Shown: positions 2,920 to 31,755, counted from the stretch's first letter. The stretch: DNA of 64,000 nucleotides from Anaerohalosphaeraceae bacterium (GCA_050309605.1 JBNRMN010000034.1:172554-236553), one strand, 5' to 3'. The notes: a model not told the origin generated them from the letters alone. A program made the numbers and translations.

Positions 2920-2972
2920 TTGAATGTTTAGCAGGAAGCGGTTCAGTGCGTATGTATTGAGATAACAGGTAA

Positions 2973-4394
<1,422 letters not shown>

Positions 4395-4443
4395 TCGGCT
4401 GACAGATGTCAAGAATGAGAATTAATTTTGGAATGTCCTGCTT

Positions 4444-4890
4444 ATGGTAGGTCTGTCACGCGGAAAATTCAGAGTGGTTTTGTTAACTCCTCAAGCCGGC
4501 CTGCTGGACTGTCGAGCCGGATCGGTGGTGTTGCCGGGACATGACGGCTATCTCGGTATATTGCGCAATCATTGTCCGATGTTGAGCACCGTCAGTCGGG
4601 GGATTATGCAGGTGCGGGAAATTCCCGGCCGGACGGACGCCTTTTTTATCGTGGAAGGGGGGTTTGTACAAGTCAGCGAAAATCACGTCACGGTACTGGC
4701 TTATGAAGCGACCACCTTTGAGGGGCAGGACGAAAAAAGCATTGAAGAGATGCTGTACCACGCTCGCAGCGTGGTGGCGGGGCACGAATACATCCGCTCG
4801 CAACAGGAAGCGATTGATTATGACAAGGCGCGTCTGATAGTGCGAATGGCCGAGATGGCCGATGTCAAGCTGGCCGCCGAAAAAGAATAA
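4444..4890 (+). CDS. atpC: F1 ATP synthase epsilon subunit
   Basis: 'LPGHDGYLGILRNHCP' and 'VEGGFVQV..NHVTVLA'; follows atpD. Confidence 0.92.
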   Translation: MVGLSRGKFRVVLLTPQAGLLDCRAGSVVLPGHDGYLGILRNHCPMLSTVSRGIMQVREIPGRTDAFFIVEGGFVQVSENHVTVLAYEATTFEGQDEKSIEEMLYHARSVVAGHEYIRSQQEAIDYDKARLIVRMAEMADVKLAAEKE

Positions 4891-4984
4891 TTCGCTGATT
4901 GCCGCCGACTTCCGGAAAAAAGTTTGAAATTCCGACGCCGAATAATTAGAATCACGGCACTCGGTTGAGCTTGGATAATAAAAG

Positions 4985-5278
4985 ATGACCTCGAACCAAA
5001 ACAAGCATGACAGCGCATCCGCCGATTCGGCCGTTGAAGCCTTTGTTCGCGGTTTGGATGACAAATACCGGATGCTCGTAATCCTCAAATCGCAGCTTTA
5101 CGGCGGGCGATGGGAGCCGATGCTTGATGACTTACAGAATCGACTTGAGGGCAAACCTTACATTTTCAAGCTGGCCAACCGAATCAAAGACGACGTGGAC
5201 CGCATCGCCGTGCTGCGCGCCTTTGAACAAACGCATGACGTCGATTTGGCCGACTACATCAAGCTGGATTCGCATTGA
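4985..5278 (+). CDS. Small hypothetical protein (97 aa)
   Basis: Clean ORF in an intergenic gap with protein-like helical sequence (LYGGRWEPMLDDLQNRLEGKPYIFKL). Confidence 0.75.
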   Translation: MTSNQNKHDSASADSAVEAFVRGLDDKYRMLVILKSQLYGGRWEPMLDDLQNRLEGKPYIFKLANRIKDDVDRIAVLRAFEQTHDVDLADYIKLDSH

Positions 5279-5357
5279 GTCGGTTTCGTCGGGGTGGGAC
5301 GACCACCGTAGCCAACAGGTATGCAGTTAAGGCTGTCAGACACAGATCGGAGATGAT

Positions 5358-6467
5358 ATGAAGACAAGCGTAATAAGTGTGATGTATGTGATGGTGTGGT
5401 GGGGATGTGCCGCCGCTCAGACAGTGCCCCAAAATGCAACGCCGACGTCTGAATTGATTTCGCCGGCGCTGATCGACCGGGCGGGATGGACGATGAACTG
5501 GCAGCTCAAACTGCCGCTGCGAGCGAGCGAGACAGTGGACCGGATCGTTATTTTTGATGAGTATCTTTATGTCCTGACCGACAGAAATGTATTGTTTTGT
5601 ATAAACCGCCAGGCGGGGACTATGCGTTTTGTGACGCCGCTGGCCCCACGCGGTCTGCCGATCTGCGATCCCATCTCTTTTGAGAACAACCTGCTGTTTA
5701 TGGTGGGCAATGAATTGGTCGTTGTCGATCCCTGGGCCGGAACCATTGCTGAACGGTACAGTTTTGCTCAAATCGGCAATACGTATGAATGCGGACTGGC
5801 AATGAACAGCGAATATGTGTATTTGACCGGTTCAGACGCACGTCTTTATGCCTACTCCCGCGACGGCTACTGGCGTGTCTTTTCCGCCACAGCGGATAAC
5901 AATTCACCGATTATTTCACTGGCGGCGCTGGAGGACCGGGTATTGTTTGCCACGCAGGCGGGCAATGTGGTGGCCATCGCCCCCAATCGCGCGGAAAAAT
6001 ACTGGCAATTTGACGCCACCGGTACGATTGATTCAGAACTGGTCGTATCCGAAGGGAAGGTCTATATCGGCAGTCACGATACCAAACTGTATCAATTGGA
6101 TGTCAATACCGGGCGTTTGGCCTGGCCTTCGCCGTTTCACGCCGGCGCCCGGATTCACAAGCCCGTGGTGATCGGTCAAGACCTGGTGTACCTGACCGCC
6201 GGCACAATGGGTGTTTATGGAATCAACAAAGAGACCGGACGAGCGGTCTGGCAGGTTCGCGACGGCCTGGGGGTCTTGACCGAAACCGTCGAGCACAGCT
6301 TTGTGCTCAGTCGCCCCGGATTATTGAATGTAATGGACAATGCCACCGGCCGAAAACTTTACAGCGTCAATTTCTCGCGGGTCAGACGGTTTGCGACAAA
6401 AATGGATGAACCCAGACTCTATGTCGCTGATGAAGGCGGCCGCATTGCGGGAATTACGGTCAGATAA
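5358..6467 (+). CDS. Secreted PQQ-like (BamB-type) beta-propeller repeat protein
   Basis: Signal peptide; repeated 'VYIGSHDTKLYQLDVNTGRLAW' / 'VYGINKETGRAVW' blades. Confidence 0.85.
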   Translation: MKTSVISVMYVMVWWGCAAAQTVPQNATPTSELISPALIDRAGWTMNWQLKLPLRASETVDRIVIFDEYLYVLTDRNVLFCINRQAGTMRFVTPLAPRGLPICDPISFENNLLFMVGNELVVVDPWAGTIAERYSFAQIGNTYECGLAMNSEYVYLTGSDARLYAYSRDGYWRVFSATADNNSPIISLAALEDRVLFATQAGNVVAIAPNRAEKYWQFDATGTIDSELVVSEGKVYIGSHDTKLYQLDVNTGRLAWPSPFHAGARIHKPVVIGQDLVYLTAGTMGVYGINKETGRAVWQVRDGLGVLTETVEHSFVLSRPGLLNVMDNATGRKLYSVNFSRVRRFATKMDEPRLYVADEGGRIAGITVR

Positions 6468-6550
6468 CACCGAACTCGGCTCTCGGCCGGGACTTTTGCC
6501 ACGGATAATAGGGTTGATAGTTTAATTCGAGATATGGAAAGGAAACCAGC

Positions 6551-8161
6551 GTGGATATATCTATCAAACGGGCGTTGATCAGTGTATCGGATAAAACCGG
6601 TTTGACGCCGTTTGCCAAGGCGTTAAGCGAGATGGGGGTAACGATTATCAGTACCGGCGGCACGGCCAAAGCGCTGACGGAGGCGGGCGTTCCCGTTGTC
6701 AGCGTCGATTCGGTGACCGGCTTTCCGGAGATGATGGACGGCCGCGTCAAAACACTGCACCCCAAGATTCACGGCGGCCTGCTGGGACTGCGAGACAAAG
6801 CCGATCATGTGGACGCGATGACTGCCCACGGTATTGAGCCGATTGATTTGGTGTGCGTGAACCTGTACCCCTTTGAAAAGACCGTTGCCAAGGCCGATTG
6901 TTCATTTGACCAGGCCATCGAGAATATCGACATCGGCGGGCCGAGCATGGTCCGTTCGGCGGCCAAAAATCATAAATTTGTTACTATTGTAACCAGTCCG
7001 TCCCAATATGACGAACTTTTGGCGGAGATGAAATCCAAAGACGGAGCAACCGGTTTGCCGCTGCGTCAGAAACTGGCGCGAGCGGCCTTTTCCCTGACGG
7101 CCTCGTATGACGCCGCCATCGCACACTATCTGACGCGACACGCCGGCGAGATATTCCCGGAACGGCTGTCAGTGGCTTTACTCAAAGAACAGGAACTGCG
7201 TTACGGCGAAAATCCCCATCAGCGCGGCGCATTTTATCGTCTGCCCGACAGCCGTGAGGTCAGCGTCGGCAATGCGAAGCTCCTGACCGGCGGTACGCCC
7301 ATCAGTTTCAATAATCTGATGGACGCCAATGCGGCTTTTGAACTGGTTAAAGAATTTGATGAACCGGCGGCCGTGGTGGTCAAGCATATGAACCCGTGCG
7401 GCTGTGCGGTCGATGCGGATATTTGTAAAGCCTACGAAAAGGCCTATCTGGGCGATGTGGTCAGTGCGTTCGGCGGTATTGTCGCGCTGAACCGACCGGT
7501 CGATAAAGAACTGGCGACGGTCATTATGGAATCGTATGCCCGGTTCGGCAAAGCCAAAGGCGCTGCGGGCTTCTTTGCCGAAGTCATTATTGCGCCGTCC
7601 TATGAGCAGGAAGCGGTTGAAGTAATTCGCACCCTCAAAGCGTGGGGACAGCGCGTCCGTCTGCTCGAAACCGGTCCAATTGACCGAAAACAGGTGGATG
7701 CACATCAATACGATGTCCGTTGTCTGGTCGGCGGGCTGCTCTTGCAGCAGCGCGATCTGGTCGGTTGGGAACCGGACGCACTGACGTTTCCGACGGCGGT
7801 CAAACCCACCGCCGAGCAGCTTGAGGATTTGCGCCTTGCCTGGCTGTGTGCCAAACACGTCAAGAGCAACACGATTACGCTCGTCAAAGGCCGGACGCTG
7901 GTTGGTGTAGGCGCCGGGCAGATGAACCGCGTCGAATCGGGCCTGATCGCCGTCAAACAGGCAGGCAGCCAGGCCCAGGGTGCGGCCATGGGGTCGGACG
8001 CCTTTTTCCCGTTCCCCGACAATGTTGAAAACGCCGCTCAAGCGGGCATTGCCTGTATCGTCCAGCCTGGCGGATCAAAGAAAGACGACGAGGTCATCGC
8101 CTGCGCGGACAAGCACGGCATCGCCATGGTCTTTACCGGAAAGCGTCATTTCTATCATTAA
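6551..8161 (+). CDS. purH: Bifunctional AICAR transformylase/IMP cyclohydrolase
   Basis: [63 protein letters not shown]. Confidence 0.98.
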
Positions 8162-10311: not shown

Positions 10312-11049
10312 ATGACTGCGGACAAGCCTGTGAACAACATTGAACTTTCGCTGGTGATTCCCGCTTATAATGAGCAGGACACCATAGATCCCTTGCTTGC
10401 GCGGATCGCCGAAGTATTCGAAGACGCCGTTTATTCCTTTGAAGCCATTGTGGTGGATGACGGCAGTACCGATCGAACGCTCGAACTGCTCAAGGCCGCT
10501 AAAACCCAAAAACCCTGGCTTAGAATTCTCACCTTCGACCGCAATCACGGCCAGACTGCTGCGATGAGCGCCGGCTTTCAAGCCGCCGGCGGGCGTATCG
10601 TCGCCACACTGGATGCCGACTTGCAGAACGACCCGGCGGAGGTGCCGCGATTGATGAAACTGCTTAGTGATGAAGTCGATGCCGTGATCGGCTGGCGTCA
10701 GAAGCGACAAGACCCCTGGCTGCGCAGAGTCTCGACCAAAATTGCCAATACCGTTCGCAACTGGCTCTCCGGCGAGTCGATCCATGACTCGGCCTGTTCA
10801 CTAAAGGTCTATAAACGCGGCTGTCTGGAGCACGTTACGCTTTTTGAAGGCATGCACCGGTTTATGCCGACGCTGGTCAAGATGCAGGGCTATCACGTCA
10901 TTGAAGTGCCCGTCTCGCATCATCCGCGTTACGCTGGACAGGCCAAATACGGCGTTTGGAATCGCGTCTTCAAGGCTTTTTTTGATTTGCTGGCGGTGCG
11001 CTGGATGAAAAAAAGGGTTTTGCGCTATCGCGTCACAGAAATTGAGTAG
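10312..11049 (+). CDS. GT2 polyprenol-phosphate glycosyltransferase (ArnC/DPM synthase-like)
   Basis: VIPAYNE, VDDGSTD, NHGQTAA, TLDADLQNDP, HRFMP. Confidence 0.93.
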   Translation: MTADKPVNNIELSLVIPAYNEQDTIDPLLARIAEVFEDAVYSFEAIVVDDGSTDRTLELLKAAKTQKPWLRILTFDRNHGQTAAMSAGFQAAGGRIVATLDADLQNDPAEVPRLMKLLSDEVDAVIGWRQKRQDPWLRRVSTKIANTVRNWLSGESIHDSACSLKVYKRGCLEHVTLFEGMHRFMPTLVKMQGYHVIEVPVSHHPRYAGQAKYGVWNRVFKAFFDLLAVRWMKKRVLRYRVTEIE

Positions 11050-11074
11050 GTCTTTTCGGCGGACTGCGAATCGG

Positions 11075-11845
11075 ATGCTGACACACTTGCGACAACCTGT
11101 TACTCGCCTGTGGGGTCGGGTGTGCCGGGGACTTGCCGGACTGGACGACTTGCTGTTTCCGCCGTATTGCCTTCTTTGCAAGACGCCGATTGACAGGCAA
11201 AATGACGGCTTGTGCCTGGGTTGCTGGCAGGAGCTGACACGGAACGTTGCCGGCGATTACTGCCGTCGGTGCGGCCGCAACGCCAGCCCCTTCGGCATTG
11301 TCAACAACCGCTGCGGCGCCTGTCAGAACGAAACGCCCGCTTTCGATGGTATCATCCGGGCCGGCGTCTATGAAACGGCCTTGCGCAGCCTGATTCTGGC
11401 GTTCAAATTCCACCAGCGCACGGAATACGCTCCGCGGCTTGGCCGCATGATGCGCGACGCGCTGGCCGTCAGCGGCTTTGCGCGTCAAATCGACTTGTTC
11501 GTTCCCGTTCCTCTCCATTGGCGGCGACGACTGGAACGCGGCTATAATCAGGCCTTCTATCTATCGCGGCATCTGTGTGCGCCGCCGGCTCGCATCTGTA
11601 CCGACCTGGTCCGAACCCGCTACACCAAACGCCAGTGGAATCTAACCGAAGCCCAGCGCCGTCGCAACGTCAAAAACGCCTTTGCCGTCCGTCGCGGCCA
11701 TCGCTTCGAAGGCAAATCCGTCGCCTTGGTCGATGATATCACGACCAGCGGCGCGACCTTAACCGAATGCGCCAACGTTCTCAAGGCCGCCGGTGCCAGA
11801 CAGGTGTACGCCGTCGTGACTGCCGTCGCCCATCAGGACACGTAG
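11075..11845 (+). CDS. comF: ComF family protein (zinc ribbons plus PRTase domain)
   Basis: LFPPYCLLC..CLGC..CRRCG..CGAC, PVPLHWRRRLERGYNQA, LVDDITTSGATL; start uncertain (11042 or 11075). Confidence 0.9.
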   Translation: MLTHLRQPVTRLWGRVCRGLAGLDDLLFPPYCLLCKTPIDRQNDGLCLGCWQELTRNVAGDYCRRCGRNASPFGIVNNRCGACQNETPAFDGIIRAGVYETALRSLILAFKFHQRTEYAPRLGRMMRDALAVSGFARQIDLFVPVPLHWRRRLERGYNQAFYLSRHLCAPPARICTDLVRTRYTKRQWNLTEAQRRRNVKNAFAVRRGHRFEGKSVALVDDITTSGATLTECANVLKAAGARQVYAVVTAVAHQDT

Positions 11846-20416: not shown

Positions 20417-21712
20417 GTGGCGACGTTTTTACTTCATTCAATTTGGCAGCTTTCAGCGATGACGGCGCTGCTGCTGGCATCGGGATTTTGCTCAGGCTCG
20501 GAGACGGCGTTCTTTCATCTGTCGCGCAGACAGGTTCGACGGTTTTCCGCCTCGCCGGCGCCGCTTGAACGGCTGGCGGCCTCGCTGCTGAGCAACCCCA
20601 ACCGGTTTTTGACCGCCCTGCTGTTTGCCAATATGACGGTCAATGTGCTGTATTTTGCCACCTCAAGTATGCTGTCAATTCAGGCGGGCCGTGCAGGCGG
20701 TGTCGCTGCCGGCGCCGCGGCGGCGTTTGTGAGTTTTCTGGCACTTTTGCTGGGCGGCGAGATGCTGCCCAAGTCGCTGGCTTACGCCAATACACGTCAG
20801 TTTTGCTTGTTTGCCTCACCGGCCTGTTACGTGCTGCTGCGGGCGCTGTCGCCGCTGCTGGCGGTTCTGGATCATGTGCTTGTCCAGCCTGCGGTGCGGC
20901 TTTTGGTGCACCCGGCGGCTCAGTCGTCGCCGATTACCGCCGATCAGCTCAGGATGCTGCTGGACAAGACGCGGCGAAAAGGCTGGATCGGAGACGATGA
21001 AAACCTGCTGCTGGCCGAGATTTTGAAGTTCGGATTCTTAAAGGTGCGCCATATTATGCAGCCGCGCGTCGAGATGCCCGCCTGTTCAATAACGCTTACG
21101 TCCTCTCAAATTCGGGCAATGATGTATCAACATCAATTGGTCAAGATACCCGTTTATAAACAGTATATCGACGCCATTGCCGGCGTGGTGTATCTGCGCG
21201 ATCTGCTGCTGAATCCCGATCGAGAGCCGGCTCACCTGGTGCGGCCGGTCGTGTATGTGCCGGAACAGAAAAGCGTTGAATCGCTGATTGAGTTTTTTCG
21301 TACCAGCGGCGAAAATATGGCGATTGTTGTGGACGAATACGGCGGCATCGCCGGGTGGGTTCGTTTTGAGCACATCATCGAGCAGTTGCTCCAGCCGATG
21401 GAAGACGGCGGTACAGAACGCCCCATCGAGCAAATCGGTCCGCTGTCCTATCGACTGGAGGCGGATTTGTCGATTTACGACTGGAAAGATGCCTTCGGCA
21501 TTGACCTCGAAGAGACCCATTTGACCACGGTCGGGGGGTTTGTTACCGCCCTGCTCGGCCGCATCCCCCGCCCCGGCGACGAAGCCCGCCTGAAAAATCT
21601 GAAATTCTCCGTTGAAAGCGTTCGCAATAATCGCATCCATACCGTGGTGCTGACGCTGGAGCCGATTCTTGACAAAACCTTGCCGCAGACGGACAACGGA
21701 GCGAGGGCATGA
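20417..21712 (+). CDS. CNNM/HlyC-CorC family protein (DUF21, CBS pair, CorC domain)
   Basis: SGFCSGSETAFF, GEMLPKS, AIVVDEYGG, TTVGGFV..LGRIP..GD. Confidence 0.92.
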   Translation: MATFLLHSIWQLSAMTALLLASGFCSGSETAFFHLSRRQVRRFSASPAPLERLAASLLSNPNRFLTALLFANMTVNVLYFATSSMLSIQAGRAGGVAAGAAAAFVSFLALLLGGEMLPKSLAYANTRQFCLFASPACYVLLRALSPLLAVLDHVLVQPAVRLLVHPAAQSSPITADQLRMLLDKTRRKGWIGDDENLLLAEILKFGFLKVRHIMQPRVEMPACSITLTSSQIRAMMYQHQLVKIPVYKQYIDAIAGVVYLRDLLLNPDREPAHLVRPVVYVPEQKSVESLIEFFRTSGENMAIVVDEYGGIAGWVRFEHIIEQLLQPMEDGGTERPIEQIGPLSYRLEADLSIYDWKDAFGIDLEETHLTTVGGFVTALLGRIPRPGDEARLKNLKFSVESVRNNRIHTVVLTLEPILDKTLPQTDNGARA

Positions 21713-22707
21713 TGGTTGTTTTATTGCAGTTTGTTCTCATTGTCGGTTTGATCGCACTGAGCGGTTTTTTCTCAGGCAGTGAAACGGGCTTGTACCGGCT
21801 GAGTCGGTTTCGTCTGCGTCTGGGGGTGGAAGAACAGCGCCCGTTTTACGAGACGCTCTTTGCACTGATTCGGGACGGTCGGGCCGCGATGATGTCCATA
21901 CTGATCGGGAATAATCTGATCAATTATGCGCTGACCAGCCTTGTTACCATACTGATTTTCAGACGGCTCAGTGATCAGCGTCTGGCTGAACTCTACACCA
22001 CAGCGATTCTGTCGCCGCTTCTTTTTGTGTGTGGTGAGATGATTCCCAAGATTCTGTTTTATCATTGGGCCGATATGCTGATGCCGCGTTTGACGTGGCT
22101 GCTGTGGGCGATCCACAAAACACTGACGGCAACCGGCATTGTCGCGGCGCTGCAATGGATGTCCGACCAATTGGCTCGGCTGCTGCGATTGGGGACGAAT
22201 ACGGCCGCAGCGGTCGATGCCACTCAGCGGCACCAGGTCTTTCAGATCATACACGAAACCCGCGAAGAAGGACTGCTTAGCGATGTGCAGCGTGATATGA
22301 TCGCTCGTCTGCTGCAAATTCCGAACGTGCCGGTTCATACCGTGATGACGTCTTATCGAAAAACTGAAAAAGTCGCTGTCGGCTGCAACCGGCAAGACCT
22401 GCTGAAACATCTGGCACACGCGTCGCACACCCGCCAGTTGGCGTGCGCGTCGGATGGTGGTGTGCTCGGCTACATCCTGATTTACGAGGTCCTCGGCAGT
22501 GAAGGCGAATTCGACGACCTGCACTCGTTTGTGCGGCCGATTGTTACACTGGAACCGATGTGTTCGGCAATCGACGCGATGAATGTCCTTTGCCGTAAGC
22601 GTGAAAAAATCGCGTTGGTCAAAGCCCCCCATTCCCGGCAGCCGCTGGGCATTATCACACTGACTGATTTGGTCGAGGAATTGACCGGCGAGCTGGCGGT
22701 TGCCTGA
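21709..22707 (+). CDS. CNNM family protein (DUF21 plus degenerate CBS pair)
   Basis: SGFFSGSETG, ILIGNN, GEMIPK, GIITLTDLVEELTGE; ATGA overlap with upstream paralogue. Confidence 0.9.
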   Translation: MMVVLLQFVLIVGLIALSGFFSGSETGLYRLSRFRLRLGVEEQRPFYETLFALIRDGRAAMMSILIGNNLINYALTSLVTILIFRRLSDQRLAELYTTAILSPLLFVCGEMIPKILFYHWADMLMPRLTWLLWAIHKTLTATGIVAALQWMSDQLARLLRLGTNTAAAVDATQRHQVFQIIHETREEGLLSDVQRDMIARLLQIPNVPVHTVMTSYRKTEKVAVGCNRQDLLKHLAHASHTRQLACASDGGVLGYILIYEVLGSEGEFDDLHSFVRPIVTLEPMCSAIDAMNVLCRKREKIALVKAPHSRQPLGIITLTDLVEELTGELAVA

Positions 22708-22715
22708 ATCGCCCG

Positions 22716-23516
22716 CTAAGGGACTTTGTAAGCGCTGTTGTCCGGCGATAAAAACCCGACGGGCGAACGGGGATGCTGCTGATTGTACTGCTCAAGGGCT
22801 TGCTGATGCCGGGCCGGCTCGACTGTCGTATAGACGTCCGCTTGTGAACGCGTACTGCCGTCGCCGCACGCCATATTGGTTTGCCGGTTGTGGCGAAACC
22901 CCTGTGTGCCGGCCCATCGGTCATTAAACGACAGATCGCCTTCGCTTCGCAGCGGGGCACGCATAAATTTATTGGCGCCGTGGATGTATTGGCCGTCGCC
23001 GAAAATTGCAACGCGCGCCGGCTGAGTCAAACGCCCGCGTCGCGCCGGCTGTGAAATGCTTTCTTGTTGACCGCGGCCGATGTAGCTGACGTTGTAATTG
23101 TAGCCGGTATAAGGATCGTAAGGGGTGTTCGACTCGCCCTGAAAAGACGGACACTGCTGAACCTTGTCAACCGGTTCGCCCTGCCATAAAATTCCCGATT
23201 CAACGATGGGGTGTTCATCAACAAAACGTACCGTAAAATCCCAATTGTAGTGAATGGGTCCCTTATCGGTCTGCTGTGTATAGTACGCGATGGGAAAAAA
23301 ATCGTTATGGTCTTCGGTATAGATCAACGCAGCGATCATCATCTGCCGCAGATTGCTTTGACAATAAACCGATTCAGCCTGCCGCCGGGCATGGGCCAGC
23401 ACCGGCAGCGTGATCGCCAGCAGCAGCGCTGTAACCGCAATCACGATCATCATTTCGATGAGCGTAAACGCCCCGATGTGTGGATTTTTTATCGTCATCT
23501 TCAAGGTTCGTCGCAT
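22716..23516 (-). CDS. Prepilin-type N-terminal cleavage/methylation protein with H-X9-DG motif (DUF1559-like planctomycete pilin-like family)
   Basis: GA|FTLIEMMIVIAV..LLAITLP, CQSNLRQ, C-terminal HNRQTNMACGDG. Confidence 0.92.
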   Translation of the reverse strand: MRRTLKMTIKNPHIGAFTLIEMMIVIAVTALLLAITLPVLAHARRQAESVYCQSNLRQMMIAALIYTEDHNDFFPIAYYTQQTDKGPIHYNWDFTVRFVDEHPIVESGILWQGEPVDKVQQCPSFQGESNTPYDPYTGYNYNVSYIGRGQQESISQPARRGRLTQPARVAIFGDGQYIHGANKFMRAPLRSEGDLSFNDRWAGTQGFRHNRQTNMACGDGSTRSQADVYTTVEPARHQQALEQYNQQHPRSPVGFLSPDNSAYKVP

Positions 23517-24457
23517 TGCCAGGTACAGACCAGCCAGTGTTCGGCCAAAATCGCAAAATCCGCCAGATCCACGCGGCAGTCGTGATTCAAATCGCCCGGC
23601 GGAAACGGATGCCGGTAATCACCGCAGGCGGCGACATCGGCTACGGCGTCCAGTTCTGCCCATTCTTCACTGGTCAGCTTGACGTATTGGATCCATCGGC
23701 GTCCGCTGGCCGGGTCAATCCGCAGCGTCTCATAATCGTCGGGTTCAAGCCATTGCAGGTCAAACCCCGTCCCCCCCGCCGAACCGTCATACAGGGCGAT
23801 GGCCTCGGGCACGGACAGTCCGGAAAAATCGCTTAGCGTCAGATTCGGATCGACGGGCCTGAGAAAATCCAGCGGCTTGCCCCACTGTCTGGAATCGCTG
23901 TCCCAGGCAAAAGGATTGGTCGGAAACAAATCGCCCGCGGACGCCCGGTCGGACGGAAACGTAAACCACGGCCCGTTGGGATCCTGGGCCACACTGACGG
24001 TCAGCCACTCGGCGTTCAGTGAGGCCGGCACGGTCAGCATAACCGTATTCATATCCGTAGTCGGGGTCAGTTCGCCGCCGGCACGCTGAAAAAACGAATT
24101 GCTAAAGACGATAAAATCAATCCCGTAGGGGTTGTTTATGTCATCAGCGACTGGATGGTCAAACCCCACAACCACTTCGCTGCCCAACCCCAATGTCAGA
24201 ACCGTCGGACGGCCGTCGGGCGTGACATTCCAGGCCGGATAAACCAGCGAGGCAGTAAACACCCCCTGTTCCCAACCGTCATAGACCTGCGTCGTCGGCG
24301 GGCCGAGTACCGCGTTGGGGTCATTATAGGGATAGACGCCGAACGGCCCTCGATACGAAACGAGCCGACTTGCAAAATCCGACCCATCCGAGGCCCATGC
24401 GACCGCTCCGACGGCAAATGTCAGAATTAAAACCGACTGAATCAGAGATCGCTTCAT
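23501..24457 (-). CDS. Secreted protein with dockerin-like C-terminal tail; core possibly related to Bacteroidota B12-binding surface proteins
   Basis: Signal peptide MKRSLIQSVLILTFAVGAVAWA; core TLGLGSEVVVGFDHPV..NPYGIDFIVFSNSF..GGTGFDL..IQYVKL; tail GDLNHDCRVDLADFAILAEHWL. Confidence 0.8.
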   Translation of the reverse strand: MKRSLIQSVLILTFAVGAVAWASDGSDFASRLVSYRGPFGVYPYNDPNAVLGPPTTQVYDGWEQGVFTASLVYPAWNVTPDGRPTVLTLGLGSEVVVGFDHPVADDINNPYGIDFIVFSNSFFQRAGGELTPTTDMNTVMLTVPASLNAEWLTVSVAQDPNGPWFTFPSDRASAGDLFPTNPFAWDSDSRQWGKPLDFLRPVDPNLTLSDFSGLSVPEAIALYDGSAGGTGFDLQWLEPDDYETLRIDPASGRRWIQYVKLTSEEWAELDAVADVAACGDYRHPFPPGDLNHDCRVDLADFAILAEHWLVCTWQCDEP

Positions 24458-24461
24458 TTGT

Positions 24462-25052
24462 TTAATGTCCGCTGTTTTGTTTTCGTGAACGACAACAAAC
24501 AACAGCCCCCGCTGCCAGCAGCACCATCGATGTCGGTTCGGGAATGGTCAAGCTGTCGCTGGTCCAGTTGGCGCCGTCCAGATTGAAGCCTTCGATGCGG
24601 CCGTGGCGAAGCTGCTGTTTGTCCACGCCGTCGGAATTGCCCGTCCACGTCTGACCGCCGTCGTCGGTGTGGCCGGTCCACCACCAGCCGAAAAAGTCCG
24701 TTCCGGCGGTATGGTAATCGCCGTCCACCGTGGTTTGATCATAGATCATATCGCCGATGAACCCCCCGCCGTATGCGAAAATCACACTCAACGGGCCGGC
24801 GGCTTCCAGCGCCGTCAGGGCGTCTTTGACGGTCGTCTGCGGGTCGTCCCAACGAAACCCGAAACAATGAAATTCGGTCTTGTATGGGCCGTTGGTCTGG
24901 TTCCAGTCGATGACGATAACGCTTTCGTTGACTCCGGAACCGGCCCAATAATCGATCGTCAGCTCGACTCCCTGAATCAGATACGCCCTGGCGGGTGCAC
25001 TACAGCATAAACCGACCAGCAGCCCGATCCACATACACCGTTGTTTTTTCAT
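24462..25052 (-). CDS. PEP-CTERM sorting-domain surface protein
   Basis: GAGGA SD before ATG 25052, signal peptide, C-terminal IPEPTSMVLLAAGAVVCC-RSRK. Confidence 0.9.
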   Translation of the reverse strand: MKKQRCMWIGLLVGLCCSAPARAYLIQGVELTIDYWAGSGVNESVIVIDWNQTNGPYKTEFHCFGFRWDDPQTTVKDALTALEAAGPLSVIFAYGGGFIGDMIYDQTTVDGDYHTAGTDFFGWWWTGHTDDGGQTWTGNSDGVDKQQLRHGRIEGFNLDGANWTSDSLTIPEPTSMVLLAAGAVVCCRSRKQNSGH

Positions 25053-25254
25053 TGATATCCTCTCACTTGGTTTCATCATCCAACACAAACAGCCGTTTAC
25101 ATTCAGCGTCGGTCGGACGGCCGCGGTTGTCGGCAGACCCAAACCACCGCGGCTGTCCCGAACCGTGCCGGCCCTCGGCGTCCGACCGAGAGCTGTGGAA
25201 ATAATTACGTAACCCGTAACGTTGTGCCGTTGTTTTCCAGAATCCACAAACCAC

Positions 25255-25293
25255 AAAAAAAGCCGCTGCCCTTCGCGAGAGGGGCAACGGCTT
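25255..25293 (-). terminator. Intrinsic terminator in the riboswitch expression platform
   Basis: Minus strand AAGCCGTTGCCCCT-CTCGCGA-AGGGCAGCGGC followed by T7, between the aptamer and the first gene. Confidence 0.85.
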
Positions 25294-25399
25294 ATCATTA
25301 TGCAGTCTTCGTCGGTTCTATGCGGAATATTCCTACAGGAATGTTCCGGGCTGTCCGACAGGCCGTCGTGTTCCAATCGCGAGAACACACGTACATATC

Positions 25400-25609
25400 A
25401 TTGGCATAAGGCAGGTTTTCTGACTCGCATCCTACCGCCGGACCCCTTCCCGTCCACAGCGTGGACAGTGGGACAATGTCTGACGGATTTGCCGAAAGCC
25501 AACCGCTCTCGACAGCGGACGCACACAGCGGCGCGACCGTCACGGATTTTCACCGTGTTCCCGTTTTGGCATATTTGGCCCGATGAACAGGGCCAAACCT
25601 TAAGCCAAT
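25400..25609 (-). promoter_or_regulatory. Cobalamin (B12) riboswitch
   Basis: Minus strand: P1 ATTGGCTTAAGG...CCTTATGCCAAT, core AAAACGGGAACACGGTGAAAATCCGTGACGGTCGCGCCGCTGT, CCCACTG...GGGAAGG, B12 box GAGTCAGAAAACCTGCC. Confidence 0.95.
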
Positions 25610-25667
25610 TTCTGGACTTGTTTGAAAGAACGACACACACTGTAACGGACAGCCGGCAAAACGGCAA

Positions 25668-25703
25668 CAAAAAAATCCCGCCGTTTTGAAAAACGACAGG
25701 ATT
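25668..25703 (-). terminator. Intrinsic terminator closing the EPS operon
   Basis: Minus strand AATCCTGTCGTTT-TTC-AAAACGGCGGGAT followed by a T run, ~30 nt after the sugar transferase stop. Confidence 0.75.
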
Positions 25704-25730
25704 CGAACATTTTGCGTTACGGCTGCATTT

Positions 25731-27338
25731 TCAGCCAAACTGGTCGAGGAAGTTGTTGATCAGCCTGGCGGCGGTTTTCAGGCAGATGGACAGATCCTGA
25801 CGAAATGACAGGTTTCGAACATAGCGGGTGTCGTAATGGACCCACTCCTGAAAGTCCTGCCCTTCCTGTCGGGTGCGGCACACCTGCCACAGGCCGGTGA
25901 TGCCCGGACGCACGGACAGCCGGGCGTCGCGCCAGGCCGGACAGGATTCATTTTCGTTCTCCGGCGACGGACGCGGCCCGACCACACTCATCTGGCCGGC
26001 CAGCACATTAAAAAACTGCGGCAGCTCGTCGATACAGGTATCCCGCAAAAATTTGCCCACACCGGTGATGCGGGGGTCGTTGTCGATCTTAAACTGCGGG
26101 CCGTCCACCTGATTGACGACGCGCAAACGCTCCTGCAAAGCGTCGGCCTGCACCATCATCGTGCGGAATTTCAGACAGTTAAACTCTTTACCGTGAAGCC
26201 CCTGACGACGAGCGCGATAAAACACCGGCCCGCTGCTGGTCAGTTTGACCATCACGGACACAATCGCCAGAACGGGACTGATCAGCAACAAAATACACAG
26301 TGAAAAGACAATATCGAAGATTCGCTTGCCCAGACGCGGATACGACAACAAGGGCCAGTTGCGAAACGCCTGGTCCTGTTTGCGACGGGTTGAACTAAAC
26401 TCTATTGCCGTCGAGCCTTGATGCCATGTATTCGGCGACGTGCAGAGTGCGTTTTGAATCACATCATCGGCCTTCACTTCCGTATTCGGCCCCAGAACGG
26501 CGTTTTGAACGACGGCTCCTTTGCCGATTTTGACATTCTCACAAAGGATCGCCGGCCCGAGCACGATCGCATGATCTTCAATTTGCACCTCAGGGCCGAT
26601 CCACACGGGACCGCTCAGACGAGCGGTCGGGGCAACCGCAGCCGATCCGTCCGTCTGGTTGAGTCGTCTTGCATCCATTCGTTCCAACAGGCTCAGCAAT
26701 CCTTCGATGGTATTCAGGTCAAGACCCTGTCCGCCGAGTCGAAACCGTCTTAACGGAATGTGCATCTCGGCAAGCCGTTGTTTCAACACCTCAAGGTCAA
26801 GGGGGATAGCGCCTTGTTTTTTGAATTCAGAAATTATCTGATATGGCAGGTGTAAAAAATCCGGAAATGTCGAATCGTCCTCGCAGGTCGGCTCAATTAA
26901 ATCCTCAAAGAGCCGCCGAACGCCGACAATGTGATGCTCAGAGGTTAGCCTGACCGGCTCATTGGAGGCGGCCAATTCCGGCGCCATCTGAACTGCGGCG
27001 ACCGCCGTTCGGGAGGCATCCAGCAACGTATGGAGCTTGTGCGGATCATACCGATACAAGCGGCGCGCGTTGCCAATCAAAATACCGTCTTTGGCTGACC
27101 CATTGAGCGAATCGACGGGCAGTCCGTCGGCGCCGAAACCCTGCATCGGCACGGCCGACCGGTCAAGATCATCCAGCCAGTCGGCCGGGACATACATCGC
27201 CGTTCGGTCGGCGTTAGGGTACCGCAGGCCGTTTAGCAGTGTATGTTGGAGCAGACCGCCCGCACCGGGCAGAGACAGAACATCTCGAAGGCAATCCCCG
27301 GCGTCTGTCGGTCGCGGCGGTATCAGAGCAATCAGCAT
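25731..27338 (-). CDS. Priming sugar transferase (Bac_transf/WcaJ-like) with N-terminal degenerate nucleotidyltransferase-like and hexapeptide beta-helix region
   Basis: KRIFDI, GPVFY..R.G, KFRTM, DPRITGVGKFLR..IDELPQFFNVL.GQMSVVGPRP, RPGITGLWQV; LbH repeats GPVWIGPEVQI..GPAILCENVKIG. Confidence 0.93.
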   Translation of the reverse strand: MLIALIPPRPTDAGDCLRDVLSLPGAGGLLQHTLLNGLRYPNADRTAMYVPADWLDDLDRSAVPMQGFGADGLPVDSLNGSAKDGILIGNARRLYRYDPHKLHTLLDASRTAVAAVQMAPELAASNEPVRLTSEHHIVGVRRLFEDLIEPTCEDDSTFPDFLHLPYQIISEFKKQGAIPLDLEVLKQRLAEMHIPLRRFRLGGQGLDLNTIEGLLSLLERMDARRLNQTDGSAAVAPTARLSGPVWIGPEVQIEDHAIVLGPAILCENVKIGKGAVVQNAVLGPNTEVKADDVIQNALCTSPNTWHQGSTAIEFSSTRRKQDQAFRNWPLLSYPRLGKRIFDIVFSLCILLLISPVLAIVSVMVKLTSSGPVFYRARRQGLHGKEFNCLKFRTMMVQADALQERLRVVNQVDGPQFKIDNDPRITGVGKFLRDTCIDELPQFFNVLAGQMSVVGPRPSPENENESCPAWRDARLSVRPGITGLWQVCRTRQEGQDFQEWVHYDTRYVRNLSFRQDLSICLKTAARLINNFLDQFG

Positions 27339-27446
27339 ATCAGACCTGAAACATACGCTTGTTCATAGCGAAGGGATAGGACGCAATCCATAACACACAG
27401 ACGGTATTTGATTCCAAAAAGGAAGTATCGAAAAACACGATAAAAA

Positions 27447-29702
27447 TTAATGTTCGGTCGATTCGGCCACTTCGCTGAGCAGCAGTGTTTTGGATTTTTT
27501 TGTTTTATGCGCGGGGCGTTTGGGTTGTTTTTTGGCGCTGTAATGGTACCCGTAACCGTATCCGTATCGCCGATAGCTGTGCGAGGTCTTGACGTTGTTG
27601 ACGACGGTTCCGATGATATTGGCCTTGATTTCCTGAAGCCGTTTGGTGGCCTGTTTCATTTCCGTCTGCGAGGTGTGTCCGACAAAACTGGTCATAATGA
27701 CGCCATCGGCCATTTTAGCCCAGACCATGGCATCGGAAAACGCCAGCACCGGCGGTGTATCAATGATGATGTAATCAAACTCATCGCGAAGTTTACGAAT
27801 TCGGGCGGCCGTATCCGGAAGGGACAGCAATTCAAATGCATCCTGTATGTTGCGGTTGTCTGAAGCGAGTACAAACAACGGCATTCCCTCGACAGGATAA
27901 AGTGTTTTTTGGAGATCAATACCGAACAGATAATCCTGTATGCCGCGGTGCCCTGCCGACAGATTCAGCATTCCGGCAATATCGGGCTTGCGCAGATCGC
28001 CGTCAACCAGCAGTGTTTTACGGCCGGAACGGGCGAAACTGGTGGCCAGATTCACCGCCAGCGTACTCTTGCCGTCGCCCATACCGGGGCTGGTGATGAC
28101 CAGCATTTTGGTTTCGCCGTCGCCGTCCAGCAGGCCGAGATTGGCGCGGATGGTTTGGTAATCATCCACAAGCTGACGTCCGAGGAGCTTTCGGCTGACG
28201 TGTTCCGGTCCGGTCGTCGTGCCGATAATGCGCACGCCCACCCGACGCGCTACGTCGTCCGGCGTATGGACGCGCCGATCCAGCTTGGCCAGCAAAAACG
28301 CCAGCGCCAGGCCCGCCGCCAGTCCGCCGAAGGGCGCCGCGGCCACCAGCTTCATCTTCTTGCCTTCCGCCGAGACGCTGCGCGCCCAGGAACCGATGGA
28401 AATCCGCGGCTGTCGGTCACGTTCGATGTTCAGTTCCTCGATACGCCGCGTGATTTCATTGTAAATCTGCCGTGAATTTTCAAACTGTTCGCGCAGGTCA
28501 TCAATGTCCAATTGGGTACGACCGATGCGAATGGTGCTTTCGTCCTGCTCTTCCAGCTGGGCGATGATCTTTTCTTCATAAGTGATCAGCCGATTCAGCT
28601 CCGACTTGAGCGCTTCCAACTCGGCCTGCCGGGATCGTCTGACGTCAGCCAGGGCGATTTTTTCATAACGTTCGGTCGCTTCCTGCCGCTGTTTTTCCAG
28701 TTCTTCCTGAAGGTCGGCAAGGATCTGTCTTCTTCGCTGCATTTCGGGATTGGTGTCCAGCATCGTCGCCTGGCCGTCGCGAATGATCTGCTCATAACGA
28801 CGAATATCCTGACGCAGGGCAACGATGGTCGGATCGTTTTCAACGCGCACCTGGATCTGGTCGGCGATGTCTTCGGCGGTCAGGGGTTCATTCAACTGTT
28901 GTTCTTTGGCCTGCACCCGCGCTTCCATCTGCATCCGCTGCACGCCGATGGCGATTTGTTCCTGCTTGAGTGTAGCCACCTGCTGGAGTGCGATTTCCTG
29001 ACGCGGCGTCAACTGTTCGGTACCGTATTCCTCAACCCGTTCGCGAATCCGTGCCCGCTGGCGGCGCATCTGTTCTTCCAGGGTGCGGCGCTGGGCTTCC
29101 AGCCGTGCCAATCGATCATCAATCGCTCGGATTTCATCGGTTCGCACAACGGCTTCATAACTGCGCAAAAATGCATCGATCAGCACCTCGGCATCTGCGG
29201 CGTGTTCGGTTTTCATCCGGACGTGAAGAAACTCCGTCTGGCGGTCCGGAATGACCTCAACGTCGCCTTTGGAAACCATACTGCGCAGTGCCTGCAACAG
29301 GTTCTGGCCGGGTTCAAAGAAGGCCAGCCGTCGATCTTTGACAGCGTCCGCTACGCGGTTCAAGACCACATCACTGGTCATTACGCCGGCCTGAGTATTT
29401 TTGAAGGTTTGATAGGCGCCCACGCCGCCTTGCGCGGTGGTCTCATACATAATCGGCACGACCACGGAGGACACCAGCACCGAACCCTGGGTCTCATATT
29501 TATCGGGCATAAAGAACCAGATTCCCGCCGCCCCGCCGCCGCCGATGAAGATCGCACACAGCAGCACGATATACCATCGACGTAAAATAGCCATGGCCAG
29601 CTCGGCCATATCATCCGATGAATGGGGCTGCTCAGGCGCTTCGACATAGTCAACCACCTCGCCATGAACCGGCGAGAAGGGATATTTTTCCAAATCCTGC
29701 AT
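27447..29702 (-). CDS. wzc: Polysaccharide co-polymerase / BY tyrosine autokinase (Wzc-like)
   Basis: Two TM segments flanking a coiled coil; Walker A TSPGMGDGKS, VDGDLRKP, IIIDTPP, Tyr cluster YRRYGYGYGYHY. Confidence 0.9.
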   Translation of the reverse strand: MQDLEKYPFSPVHGEVVDYVEAPEQPHSSDDMAELAMAILRRWYIVLLCAIFIGGGGAAGIWFFMPDKYETQGSVLVSSVVVPIMYETTAQGGVGAYQTFKNTQAGVMTSDVVLNRVADAVKDRRLAFFEPGQNLLQALRSMVSKGDVEVIPDRQTEFLHVRMKTEHAADAEVLIDAFLRSYEAVVRTDEIRAIDDRLARLEAQRRTLEEQMRRQRARIRERVEEYGTEQLTPRQEIALQQVATLKQEQIAIGVQRMQMEARVQAKEQQLNEPLTAEDIADQIQVRVENDPTIVALRQDIRRYEQIIRDGQATMLDTNPEMQRRRQILADLQEELEKQRQEATERYEKIALADVRRSRQAELEALKSELNRLITYEEKIIAQLEEQDESTIRIGRTQLDIDDLREQFENSRQIYNEITRRIEELNIERDRQPRISIGSWARSVSAEGKKMKLVAAAPFGGLAAGLALAFLLAKLDRRVHTPDDVARRVGVRIIGTTTGPEHVSRKLLGRQLVDDYQTIRANLGLLDGDGETKMLVITSPGMGDGKSTLAVNLATSFARSGRKTLLVDGDLRKPDIAGMLNLSAGHRGIQDYLFGIDLQKTLYPVEGMPLFVLASDNRNIQDAFELLSLPDTAARIRKLRDEFDYIIIDTPPVLAFSDAMVWAKMADGVIMTSFVGHTSQTEMKQATKRLQEIKANIIGTVVNNVKTSHSYRRYGYGYGYHYSAKKQPKRPAHKTKKSKTLLLSEVAESTEH

Positions 29703-29775
29703 AGACTCCTCGTTGGGAATTTTTGCACACCTTGGTATCGCTTAGTGCATCCACGCAAAAAGCCGATTTAGTATT

Positions 29776-31755
29776 TCAACTGCTATTTCGGCTGAAAACG
29801 ACCTGGTGTTCAACAGTTTCCGGCGGGTTAAATAAAACTTTCATCAACCATAACTCCAACAGGATTAGCCCTATCGCCAACGGCATCATTGCCAGCCCGC
29901 CGAAATCGTGGAACAGCTCTTCAAGCCGTTCCGAATGCACATACGTAAACGCAATCGAGGTTAATGTTAAACGAATTGTATTGCATAGCAAGGCAATAGG
30001 GATTGTAGAAATCAAGAGAACCGCTTTTTCCCAGAGCTTGCGATTGGAGATCAGGACAACAAAACCGCTAATGACAAAGAAGGCCGTCAACATCCGTAAT
30101 CCATTGCACGCCTCAGCCACCGCCACCACCGTTTCGCCAATGCGGATCACATTGCCCTCGCGAATGACGTGATAGCCGAGGGTTTCCAGCGAAAACACCG
30201 CCGAGACGGTCGCAAATTGCTGCAGCGGGATCGTGATCATTCCCTCCACCCGGCGCGGAAACGGAAGCATCAGGAAAAAGAACACAAACACCGGCAAGAA
30301 ACGCCAAAAAAATGTCCAGCCATATAACAGCAGGATAATCCCTCCTATGGAGAACACCAGCGCCAGCCGTTCGGCCGAGGCGAACATAAAATACAGCCCA
30401 AACAGCCGGAAGGCCTGGGCCGCCAGCAAGACCGCGATTCCCGCGACGGCGGGTTTGACGGGACTGGCCAGAAATGACTGACGGCACGTCCATATCACAT
30501 AGCCGGCCAGAAACGGCACCAGCAGGCCGCTGGAATATTCATCGCTGCGGAGCCAGACACTCCACAGATCGACAATCGTCGGCTTCCAATAGGCCGCCAA
30601 TAACGCCCCGAAAAGCAGTACCGTCATCCCGAACAGCCCCCATTTTAATCGAGGTCTGTCCAAACAGTCGGCCAAGGTGCCGGCGGTTTGTGTTACAGTC
30701 GGTTGTGGGTGGGTCCATTGTTTTAATCGCATAGAAATCCCCTCGGCCAATCCGCTCAACAGCCCTTTGGGTTGGGCCGCGGGCGTCTCATTCAAAACGA
30801 CTCCGCTTGGAATCTTTCGCTGCCGATCAACCAGCGACCGGCGGATTTGACAGCCGCGGCCTATCGACGCATTGTCCCAGATTATGCTTTGACGGACAAT
30901 GGTATTTTGCCCGATTTTGACATTTTTACCGATAGCAGCCGGCCCTAAAATGACCGCCTTGGCTTCGATCCGGCTTGCCGATTCAATCAAAACCGGACCG
31001 CAAATCCGCGCTGATTCGGCGATCTGAACATCCTTGCCGACCCACACATCACCGCTTGTCCCAACCGGCTGATAATTGGACCGCCAATCAGACTCCGGAT
31101 CGGCGGCTTCAAGAAGCCCTGCAACAACGGTCATATACTGACGCCATGTGGTAAAATGACCGGACGGGCGGAGTAAGCGGGCGGCATAGGGCGGTTTGTC
31201 GGCAGCGACAAGGGCGGGAATCAGCCCTTCTTTGATGTCTTCATAGCCCTTTTTCGGGATATAGGACAAAACGGATGGCTCACAGACATAAATCCCCGCA
31301 TCCTTGAGGCCTCGGCCGTTGGCCCCGCAGGCGGGATTGAACAGGACGGTCATCTCCGCCTGGCCGCTTCGATGGGCGGCGATTATCTCCTGAACATCCG
31401 GCGGCGATGCGGTGCAGGCGGCACATACAATCAACAGCTCGTCGCGCCCCGGATCGGCGGCGTCCAGAACCGAGCCGGCTGTGCCGCGCGGCATGGTTTG
31501 CTCGATATACTGAACTTGCAGTGTATCGGGAAGCGTGATCGCTTCGCGAATGTCGCCGGCCTGGTTTTCACAGCAAACGACAAACCGCTGCACGCCCTGG
31601 GCAGCGAGTTGTTCGATCAGGTGCTGCACAACGGGCTTGCCGGCAATCTGCCATAAGGCGCGGTTATGCCGTGTGGCTATGGGACACCGCCCAAAATCCC
31701 GCCCGCCGACGAGGATGACCACTTTGATGTTGTTTATGGAAGTTGAGTCAGTCAT
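29776..31755 (-). CDS. Exosortase with N-terminal NDP-sugar pyrophosphorylase-like plus beta-helix module
   Basis: C-terminal multi-TM domain with triad motifs VAEACNGLRML (Cys), NTIR (Arg), FHDFGG (His); N-term VILVGG..., PRGTAG, AGIYV.EP, LbH repeats. Confidence 0.92.
   Translation of the reverse strand: MTDSTSINNIKVVILVGGRDFGRCPIATRHNRALWQIAGKPVVQHLIEQLAAQGVQRFVVCCENQAGDIREAITLPDTLQVQYIEQTMPRGTAGSVLDAADPGRDELLIVCAACTASPPDVQEIIAAHRSGQAEMTVLFNPACGANGRGLKDAGIYVCEPSVLSYIPKKGYEDIKEGLIPALVAADKPPYAARLLRPSGHFTTWRQYMTVVAGLLEAADPESDWRSNYQPVGTSGDVWVGKDVQIAESARICGPVLIESASRIEAKAVILGPAAIGKNVKIGQNTIVRQSIIWDNASIGRGCQIRRSLVDRQRKIPSGVVLNETPAAQPKGLLSGLAEGISMRLKQWTHPQPTVTQTAGTLADCLDRPRLKWGLFGMTVLLFGALLAAYWKPTIVDLWSVWLRSDEYSSGLLVPFLAGYVIWTCRQSFLASPVKPAVAGIAVLLAAQAFRLFGLYFMFASAERLALVFSIGGIILLLYGWTFFWRFLPVFVFFFLMLPFPRRVEGMITIPLQQFATVSAVFSLETLGYHVIREGNVIRIGETVVAVAEACNGLRMLTAFFVISGFVVLISNRKLWEKAVLLISTIPIALLCNTIRLTLTSIAFTYVHSERLEELFHDFGGLAMMPLAIGLILLELWLMKVLFNPPETVEHQVVFSRNSS

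Follow-up and report, generated by a model that had tools for sequence, protein, structure and literature searches.

A cobalamin riboswitch heads an operon of three exported proteins in an Anaerohalosphaeraceae bacterium, a probable planctomycete variant of surface B12 capture

We analyzed a stretch of 64,000 nucleotides (nt), referred to as the window, from an Anaerohalosphaeraceae bacterium (GCA_050309605.1, JBNRMN010000034.1:172554-236553). All positions are counted from its first letter. On the minus strand, a cobalamin (vitamin B12) riboswitch heads an operon of three genes, here named A, B and C, all with predicted exported products. The operon and its bounds are laid out as follows:

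25393-25617 (-): cobalamin riboswitch aptamer (RF00174, by Infernal)
25255-25291 (-): intrinsic terminator of the riboswitch expression platform, with the hairpin at 25262-25291 and the U-tract at 25255-25261 (by RNA fold)
24462-25052 (-): gene A, 196 amino acids (aa); signal peptide, predicted transcobalamin-beta-like domain, PEP-CTERM tail
23501-24457 (-): gene B, 318 aa; signal peptide, predicted BtuH-class domain, dockerin-like repeat
22716-23498, alternative start 23516 (-): gene C, 260 aa; prepilin N-terminus, DUF1559-like body, H-X9-DG motif
25673-25704 (-): terminator-like site upstream of the operon, ending the preceding sugar-transferase gene (by consensus terminator scan)
21709-22707 (+): convergent CNNM-type gene closing the operon (by domain scan)

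The signal peptides of A and B were judged by eye from the sequence. Genes A and B are separated by 4 nt, and a Shine-Dalgarno-like GAGAGG is found 8 nt before the start codon of gene A. For gene C, an alignment of 39 operon-linked family members favored the start at 23498 over the ATG at 23516, leaving a gap of 2 nt after gene B. A preliminary description of this locus had reported a packed minus-strand trio, with a 4-nt gap followed by an overlap. The gap stands, and the overlap of B and C exists only with the ATG at 23516. The upstream terminator and the convergent gene, which it had named as bounds, were both recovered.

The riboswitch match had a score of 78.5 bits (E 1.2e-17 in the window) and was full-length (model positions 1-189 of 189), well over the gathering score of 31.5. 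This search, with Infernal and the Rfam Cobalamin model, was the check put forward in the preliminary description, and it agrees with the canonical cobalamin riboswitch claimed there. The terminator claimed with it was also found, ~100 nt 3' of the aptamer, as a 12-bp G + C-rich stem followed by seven U. The fold of positions 25235-25400 (166 nt) had a minimum free energy of -61.3 kcal/mol and a z of -3.5, and 0 of 200 shuffled sequences were as stable. A simple consensus terminator scan missed the site at 25255-25291. Across the whole assembly (3.4 Mb, 97 contigs, 99.73% complete) this was the one match to RF00174; judged by riboswitch search, the operon would be the only unit regulated by B12 in the source organism.

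In RNA sequenced from compost, one contig of 312 nt corresponded to 25304-25615 with zero mismatches, ending 13 nt short of the hairpin. The same run held almost nothing on genes A, B and C, namely one 33-nt partial piece. Contigs cannot show RNA ends, and stretches without RNA cover prove nothing, so that the contig is a weak hint, consistent with a transcribed, terminated or stable leader. The other RNA-labelled run examined (X19) was probably DNA.

The core of gene B was unnamed by Pfam and NCBIfam, both in the gene itself and in 52 family members. Its structural model (AF2) was confident, with a pLDDT of 91.6 and a pTM of 0.85, and the top two PDB matches by Foldseek were BtuH2 (7biz, E 2.8e-5) and BtuG1 (8blw_B, E 8.2e-5). 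By VIA, 147 aa aligned with residues 314-592 of BtuH2 7biz at Z 13.4 and 24% identity, and residues 390-660 of BtuG1 8blw_B gave Z 12.9. The next row had Z 9.6, and jelly-rolls of the CBM32 type had Z 8-9. The matching domain spans about residues 22-276 of gene B. On the sequence side, a broad profile (A6, built from B and B-like proteins) matched residues 390-528 of 8blw_B with E 1.8e-9. Residues 314-593 of BtuH2 are described as the globular domain holding cyanocobalamin (PMC8941943), and BT_1490 (BtuG1, alias BtuGH) is described as carrying the same globular domain (PMC13616437). The corrin- and metal-site residues given for BtuH2 include Gln333, Asn399, His476 and Tyr510 (PMC8941943, PMC13616437). 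By fold and sequence profile, gene B is a member of the BtuH class, and is predicted to bind corrinoids.

The tail of gene B resembles a dockerin. Dockerin_1 was matched by 33 of the 52 family members, and the broad B profile matched solved dockerins with E 3.5e-9. No lipobox cysteine was seen by eye after the signal peptide. Gene B does not qualify as a BtuH-class surface lipoprotein working with BtuB, as its anchoring is different and the operon has no BtuB.

Gene A also had a core unnamed by Pfam and NCBIfam. An AlphaFold (AF2) model from 25 sequences reached moderate confidence (pLDDT 77.9, pTM 0.70). Foldseek ranked transcobalamin, intrinsic factor, haptocorrin and the bacterial chain 3u7z first (lowest E 1.4e-3). 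By VIA, residues 40-161 of the model covered the whole transcobalamin beta domain (Z 10.3-11.3, root-mean-square deviation 2.4 Å, 98 residues). The first 15 rows contained nothing but transcobalamin, intrinsic factor, haptocorrin and 3u7z, with 94 of 97 residues of 3u7z aligned at Z 9.7; unrelated beta-grasp folds followed at Z 6.3. The isolated human beta domain has been crystallized with cyanocobalamin, according to the title of PDB entry 5np4. Lacking a sequence-level match, gene A is regarded as a fold-alike of the transcobalamin beta domain and of DUF4430, and not as a member of either family.

The domain of gene A appears to belong to a large family. A profile of the A domain alone gave 1796 representative clusters at E≤0.001, of which 1075 reached E≤1e-10; tandem arrays were among them. 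We scanned 34 clusters with Pfam, out of 150 listed (P0186-P0334 list). Sixteen had no Pfam match at all, seven had type IX secretion tails and four PEP-CTERM tails; 29 of the 34 were named by Pfam at most for other domains or for the sorting tail, and one also matched DUF4430. The type IX secretion tails point to Bacteroidota-like hosts. In one cluster (P0190), DUF5074 was fused to A-type domains, with a 'quinoprotein amine dehydrogenase-like protein' as best PDB match. The idea that DUF5074 might be the BtuG propeller could not be confirmed and was dropped.

The sorting tail of gene A matched the PEP-CTERM model TIGR02595 with 17.1 bits (cut-off 16) and scored 18.3-19.5 bits on Pfam PF07589, under the cut-off of 20.7. 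PEP-CTERM was matched by 20 of the 25 family members. An exosortase was found in the same genome, and is likely the enzyme that sorts gene A by its tail:

29776-31755 (-): exosortase (EpsH type) fused to a nucleotidyl-transferase/LbH domain (PF09721, 186.8 bits)

This gene is outside riboswitch control. It is part of an exopolysaccharide (EPS) locus adjoining the operon at 25731-31755 (-), which also encodes a sugar transferase and a Wzz/tyrosine-kinase-type protein. By the sizes of their open reading frames (ORFs), the three upstream genes are the same as those before the operon in the loci L032, L033 and L038.

Such surroundings could suit a different reading, in which A and B serve the adjoining exosortase/EPS system at the surface, in glycan binding or adhesion, and B12 control is unrelated to corrinoid binding, reflecting for example some B12-dependent step in envelope biogenesis. 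The operon abuts the EPS locus, gene A has a PEP-CTERM tail, gene B has a dockerin-like tail, and the jelly-roll core of B also resembles the CBM32 modules mentioned above. The structural comparison speaks against it: the BtuH rows outscored the next row by 3.8 Z and the CBM rows by ~4.5-5 Z, their identity was 22-24%, and the profile match was significant. Further evidence on this reading came from related genomes.

Of the 401 genomes sampled from the class, 126 had a homologue of gene B (E≤1e-10, some tail-only matches included). In the 29 best non-self B loci, examined with 1.5-kb flanks, RF00174 was upstream on the same strand in 21, and several of the remaining eight have a riboswitch just beyond the flank. 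The linkage was then counted in the 80 class genomes with the best B matches, taking a distance of ≤5 kb on the same strand as a link. These genomes had 105 riboswitches, 79 of them upstream of a B homologue, and the link was present in 74 of the 80 genomes. Fifty-nine genomes had a single riboswitch, which was B-linked in 54. In the six unlinked genomes, the features were on separate small contigs or, in one genome, there was no riboswitch match. The other riboswitches sampled in the class headed nrdD, metE or further B/C modules, and none of those sampled headed btuB or another TonB-dependent receptor, nor btuFCD or another ATP-binding cassette (ABC) importer.

The module was found in three interchangeable forms, each behind the riboswitch and, inside the class, nearly always with a C-family gene as its last member. 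In the first, corresponding to the operon described here (A-B-C), gene C directly followed B in 19 of 20 wider loci; an A-like gene preceded B in 13 of the 20 by tblastn, and in more by position and alignment. The second form consists of riboswitch, B, a PQQ_2 beta-propeller and C. Here the propeller was present in 14 of 20 loci, often with a dockerin tail, and a C-like gene in 13. This form occurs in other families of the class. The third form has the order riboswitch, DUF4465 (PEP-CTERM), B-like gene, C. DUF4465 (PF14717) was found in 67 of the 401 class genomes; the source genome had no match. Within the source's own family and order it was mostly found in genomes without a good B match. 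A riboswitch was present at 19 of 20 DUF4465 loci, and 19 wider loci contained an adjacent B-like gene in 16 cases (one of them a fusion) and a C-family gene in 18. Most DUF4465 proteins of this form end in PEP-CTERM-like tails, and they retain the 'TPAYF' loop, which is described as the loop contacting B12 (PMC13398666). In vitro binding of B12 is reported for DUF4465 proteins, among them one of the Phycisphaerae species Mucisphaera calidilacus (PMC13398666).

The gene B family is homologous to the B-like proteins (hhalign probability 99.55%, E 2.2e-23). Of 401 genomes sampled from the phylum, 58 were matched by the broad B profile built from both. A riboswitch was upstream at all 20 loci tested with this profile, namely L124, L129 and 18 loci lying outside the class. 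At most of these loci, FG-GAP propellers, sulfatases or DUF6580 proteins follow B. The linkage of a riboswitch to a B-family gene, joined within the class by a C-family gene, thus recurs widely across the phylum. The survey of genes behind B12 riboswitches in the phylum, which the preliminary description had proposed, bore out its expectation that the trio recurs, as itself or in variants.

Two observations on these loci are noted separately. Tandem or close riboswitch pairs preceded B/C modules in G053:C121 (3882-4099 and 4204-4453, +) and a B/C-type module in L135 (717-926 and 1938-2132, +). DUF6580 adjoins B-like genes in L146 and L150 and was considered as a possible membrane transporter; the source genome had no match, and as the control genomes were also unmatched, the search was uninformative.

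In many homologues the domains are fused. Among 52 longer B homologues, 36 had a match to the A family N-terminal to the B domain, in 6 of these 36 as two tandem copies, and 4 of the 52 had PQQ_2 propellers. The A hidden Markov model (HMM) used for this count included the signal peptide, so that very short N-terminal matches are weak; most were >120 residues. Because the A and B domains are often fused in one protein, A and B probably act together. Bacteroides BtuGH is likewise described as a fusion (PMC13616437). At locus L040, in a genome of the same order, genes for a CobC-like phosphatase, CobU, CobT (DBI_PRT) and CobS were found at 2886-6744 (-), after C and before a ComF-like gene. By its gene content, this arrangement would be a corrinoid capture-plus-remodelling operon. 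At L039, a DUF1638 gene follows C.

These data weaken the glycan-binding interpretation of A and B. Most other lineages have no adjacent exosortase locus, as judged by ORF sizes, yet the riboswitch link stays. In the third form, A is exchanged for DUF4465, reported as a B12-binding family (PMC13398666), and at L040 cobalamin salvage genes follow C. We consider it very unlikely that A and B are glycan-binding proteins under B12 control of another origin, be it through a B12-dependent step in envelope biogenesis or otherwise.

Gene C has a prepilin-type N-terminus, with a cleavage/methylation motif recognized by PF07963 (N_methyl, 24.4 bits, cut-off 21.2) and TIGR02532 (19.4 bits, cut-off 16.3). 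DUF1559 (PF07596) scored 21.4 bits, under the cut-off of 23.3, and covered only the N-terminal part of the profile (positions 3-54). In the nearest Atlas clusters, PF07596 was present in 16-27% of the members. The H-X9-DG motif was read by eye, and H203 and D213 were invariant in the 39-member alignment (A8). The best NCBIfam rows, ComGC and GspG, matched the N-terminus only and were far under their cut-offs. To our knowledge, DUF1559 has no known function. An HMM of the C family scored gene C with 339.9 bits and the best of 42 paralogue matches in the genome with 102.6 bits; gene C's own sequence was part of the model. The sequence comparison indicates a dedicated orthologue group for gene C, and this gap says nothing on function. 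A complex predicted for residues 22-318 of B and 36-260 of C returned 'no answer' with a score of 0.00, which is evidence neither way.

In many related genomes, a ComF-like gene (double zinc ribbon plus phosphoribosyltransferase) was found 20-120 nt after the C-family gene (loci L034, L036, L037, L038, L040, L041, L043, L044, L095, L099, L104 and L111). The source genome has a single copy, ~11 kb from the operon:

11042-11845 (+): ComF-like gene, sole copy in the source genome

In DNA uptake, ComF proteins work together with competence pili. The pairing of ComF-like and pilin-like genes is suggestive, and may also be plain synteny.

The source genome appears to belong to an organism that uses corrinoids without being able to make them. 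CbiC, CobS and MetE were not found in this 99.73%-complete genome, which encodes two stand-alone corrinoid proteins and B12-binding radical S-adenosylmethionine enzymes. The MetH activation domain PF02965 was not found in the genome either, and we claim no dependence on MetH. The preliminary description had noted the lack of a transporter. This is true of the operon, whereas elsewhere the genome has a BtuFCD-like ABC system and two TonB-dependent receptors. The ABC system, located behind mutL without a riboswitch, comprises one FecCD-type permease, an ATPase and a binding protein. Its best NCBIfam rows were BtuC, a corrinoid ABC ATPase and IsdE/BtuF, all under the equivalog cut-offs. On contig C92 (L072 5719-11586, -), a TonB-dependent receptor gene is directly downstream of two tandem genes for GspD/PilQ-type secretins. 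This neighborhood is unusual and could be relevant to the passage of cargo through the outer membrane.

The preliminary description had proposed surface scavenging of corrinoids or cobalt. Cobalamin riboswitches do control cobalt transporters in B12 producers, and the binding protein of the BtuFCD-like system also resembles the haem-binding IsdE, so that cobalt, or another tetrapyrrole such as haem, was weighed as the cargo in place of corrinoids. Cobalt scavenging is unlikely: with neither CbiC nor CobS found in a genome 99.73% complete, there is no evident way in which the cell would use free cobalt to build corrins. In the structural comparisons, A and B both came closest to cobalamin binders. 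We thus regard cobalt or haem as extremely improbable cargo, and corrinoid capture, the other half of the proposal, as the best reading.

The fate of the captured corrinoid allows for another possibility. The module might sequester or store corrinoids, either withholding them from competitors or keeping an extracellular reservoir, with C acting as a pseudopilin of a type II secretion-like system only. Pseudopilins classically act in type II secretion, and the genome has secretin genes. All three products are exported and the operon has no transporter. Bacteroides BtuJ1 has been described as an extracellular reservoir (bioRxiv 10.1101/2025.07.01.662609; PMC13616437). Repression by B12, on the other hand, fits a need-driven uptake, and since the genome is apparently unable to make corrinoids, captured corrinoid must finally be imported. 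Storage without import is therefore unlikely, and the reservoir and uptake roles are not mutually exclusive.

Taken together, the operon is probably a B12-repressed module that captures corrinoids outside the cytoplasm. The riboswitch, the terminator, the gene order and its conservation, and the fold and profile relationships are direct observations. The mechanism would be as follows. At high intracellular cobalamin, the aptamer would favor the terminator, and transcription would stop before gene A. At low cobalamin, the terminator would be read through, and A, B and C would be made and exported. A would be tethered at the cell surface through handling of its PEP-CTERM tail by the exosortase encoded 4 kb upstream, and B would be displayed outside, held by its dockerin-like tail to some partner. 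Both would bind corrinoids, probably jointly. C, the constant last gene in the class, which takes the place of BtuB in the Bacteroides operons, would link the binders to the envelope. It may be part of a pseudopilus or pilus passing through a secretin, displaying or retrieving the loaded binders; it may be a periplasmic receiver anchored in the inner membrane; or it may be a pseudopilin needed for the export of A and B. Entry into the cytoplasm would take place through the single BtuFCD-like ABC importer of the genome. The role of C is the weakest step of this proposed mechanism.

A bolder version combines several of these steps. In it, the C-family DUF1559 proteins would be envelope-crossing import elements that operate without a dedicated TonB-dependent BtuB. 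A secretin-spanning fibre would contain C as a minor pilin or pseudopilin on which the binders (A/B, DUF4465/B or B/propeller) dock, and retraction of the fibre or a hand-over would bring the corrinoid to the periplasm for the BtuFCD-like importer. A and B would form a two-lobed cobalamin clamp, by analogy with the alpha and beta domains of transcobalamin. As a whole, this combination of pilin-based import and clamp is tentative, and we hold it to be rather doubtful.

Several results weigh against corrinoid capture by this module, or against parts of it. For gene A, no match to PF14478 (DUF4430) was found, and its core had no Pfam match at E≤1 in 25 members. Its profiles A2 and A9 gave no B12-related match among the PDB sequences, and fold alone does not prove that gene A binds a ligand. 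For gene B, the narrow family profile (A3) missed BtuH in the PDB, and the broadened profile was needed. Its tail is a single weak dockerin-like repeat (Dockerin_1, PF00404, E 0.2, positions 1-23 of 57). Gene B was also tested as DUF4465/BtuJ (PF14717) and rejected, with no Pfam match in 52 members and an hhalign probability of 3.8% between A3 and A4. Homology of the propeller of the second form to BtuG was not shown, its best solved relatives being BamB. The role of gene C is read from gene position and from nothing else; no fusion of B and C was seen among the 52 longer B homologues, and at the broad-profile loci a C-family gene was beside B in only 4 of 20 (L124, L134, L135 and L137). The two TonB-dependent receptors of the genome could serve for transport across the outer membrane without a pilin. 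The RNA evidence consists of a single contig from a single library.

Other features near the operon were less telling. The convergent gene is one of two adjacent CNNM/CorC-type membrane genes at 20417-22707 (+), which are not riboswitch-controlled. The CNNM/CorC family has been linked to efflux of divalent cations (Mg/Co). The tRNA gene at 63348-63438 (-), whose variable arm is long (RF00005, 59.6 bits), looks ordinary. DNA near-identical to 22716-25720 was found in runs labelled as poultry litter, sludge, biogas fermenter, soil, compost and gut metagenomes; 12 runs each hold at least half of the sampled words of this region, and two of these 12 may be the source.

The preliminary description had put the operon forward as a candidate new cobalamin-capture system. 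The closest known system is the relay of Bacteroides thetaiotaomicron, of which the locus would be a variant and not a categorically different system. In that relay, B12 is described as passing from BtuJ (DUF4465) to BtuH/BtuG, BtuB and BtuFCD, with cobalamin riboswitches in control (PMC13616437, PMC8941943). Both have riboswitch-repressed operons with several exported corrinoid binders, the binding being predicted for the operon studied here. Gene B shares the fold of BtuH and its sequence at profile level. Sister operons in the class place DUF4465, the BtuJ family, in the position of A. Beta-propeller partners occur in both, and the fusions of B to propellers parallel BtuGH. Unlike the relay, the planctomycete module uses PEP-CTERM and dockerin-like tails in place of lipoprotein anchors, its operon has neither BtuB nor BtuFCD, and within the class it is closed by a DUF1559 prepilin-like gene. 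Its propeller is of the BamB/PQQ_2 type and not BtuG-like by sequence, and a transcobalamin-beta-like protein such as A is not among the relay parts described in the available portion of PMC13616437.

Single genes could also be compared with other systems. In its model, gene A folds like DUF4430 (PF14478) and like the beta domain that transcobalamin, intrinsic factor and haptocorrin share (5np4, 2bb6, 2pmv, 4kki, 3u7z). Unlike these, it has no sequence-level match and no alpha-domain partner, and has instead a BtuH-like partner and a PEP-CTERM anchor. Gene C shares the prepilin-type N-terminus with type II secretion pseudopilins, type IV pilins and competence pilins (GspG, ComGC), and through its sub-threshold DUF1559 match and the H-X9-DG motif read by eye it resembles the DUF1559/H-X9-DG expansion of the Planctomycetota. 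In contrast to pilin systems, the operon has no assembly ATPase, platform protein or secretin, and in contrast to other pilins and DUF1559 proteins, gene C is in its own orthologous group tied to B12 riboswitches.

We found no publication describing the operon; supplements and subscription journals were outside the search. In the literature searched, nothing joined DUF1559 and cobalamin, and none of the titles on DUF1559 concerned its function. Searches for PEP-CTERM with cobalamin and for Phycisphaerae with cobalamin riboswitch yielded nothing on such an operon in titles and the beginnings of abstracts. In the available text of PMC13616437, BtuH homologues are reported only from 37 gut Bacteroidota, and the fold is said to be without recognizable structural homologues. 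The locus appears to be an undescribed, widespread variant of the machinery with which gut Bacteroides scavenge B12 at their surface.

Surface B12 capture with multiple binders has so far been described mainly in gut Bacteroidota, and the operon and its relatives would be a parallel modular system across the Planctomycetota. The BtuH class would extend beyond the Bacteroidota, and the domain of gene A reveals a large family, so far without a name, whose predicted fold resembles the transcobalamin beta domain. The preliminary description had expected a function for three poorly understood families. Two of them, A and B, are instead predicted to be divergent members of known B12-binding folds, and only C would gain a first functional context, inferred from its position. 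For DUF1559, a very large and functionally blank pilin-like family, this is a first defined regulatory and genomic context. If the pilin-based import were true, the DUF1559 expansions of the Planctomycetota would be cargo-specific uptake pilins. The source organisms are apparently B12 auxotrophs of digesters, sludge and litter, and the operon may thus bear on corrinoid sharing in such communities.

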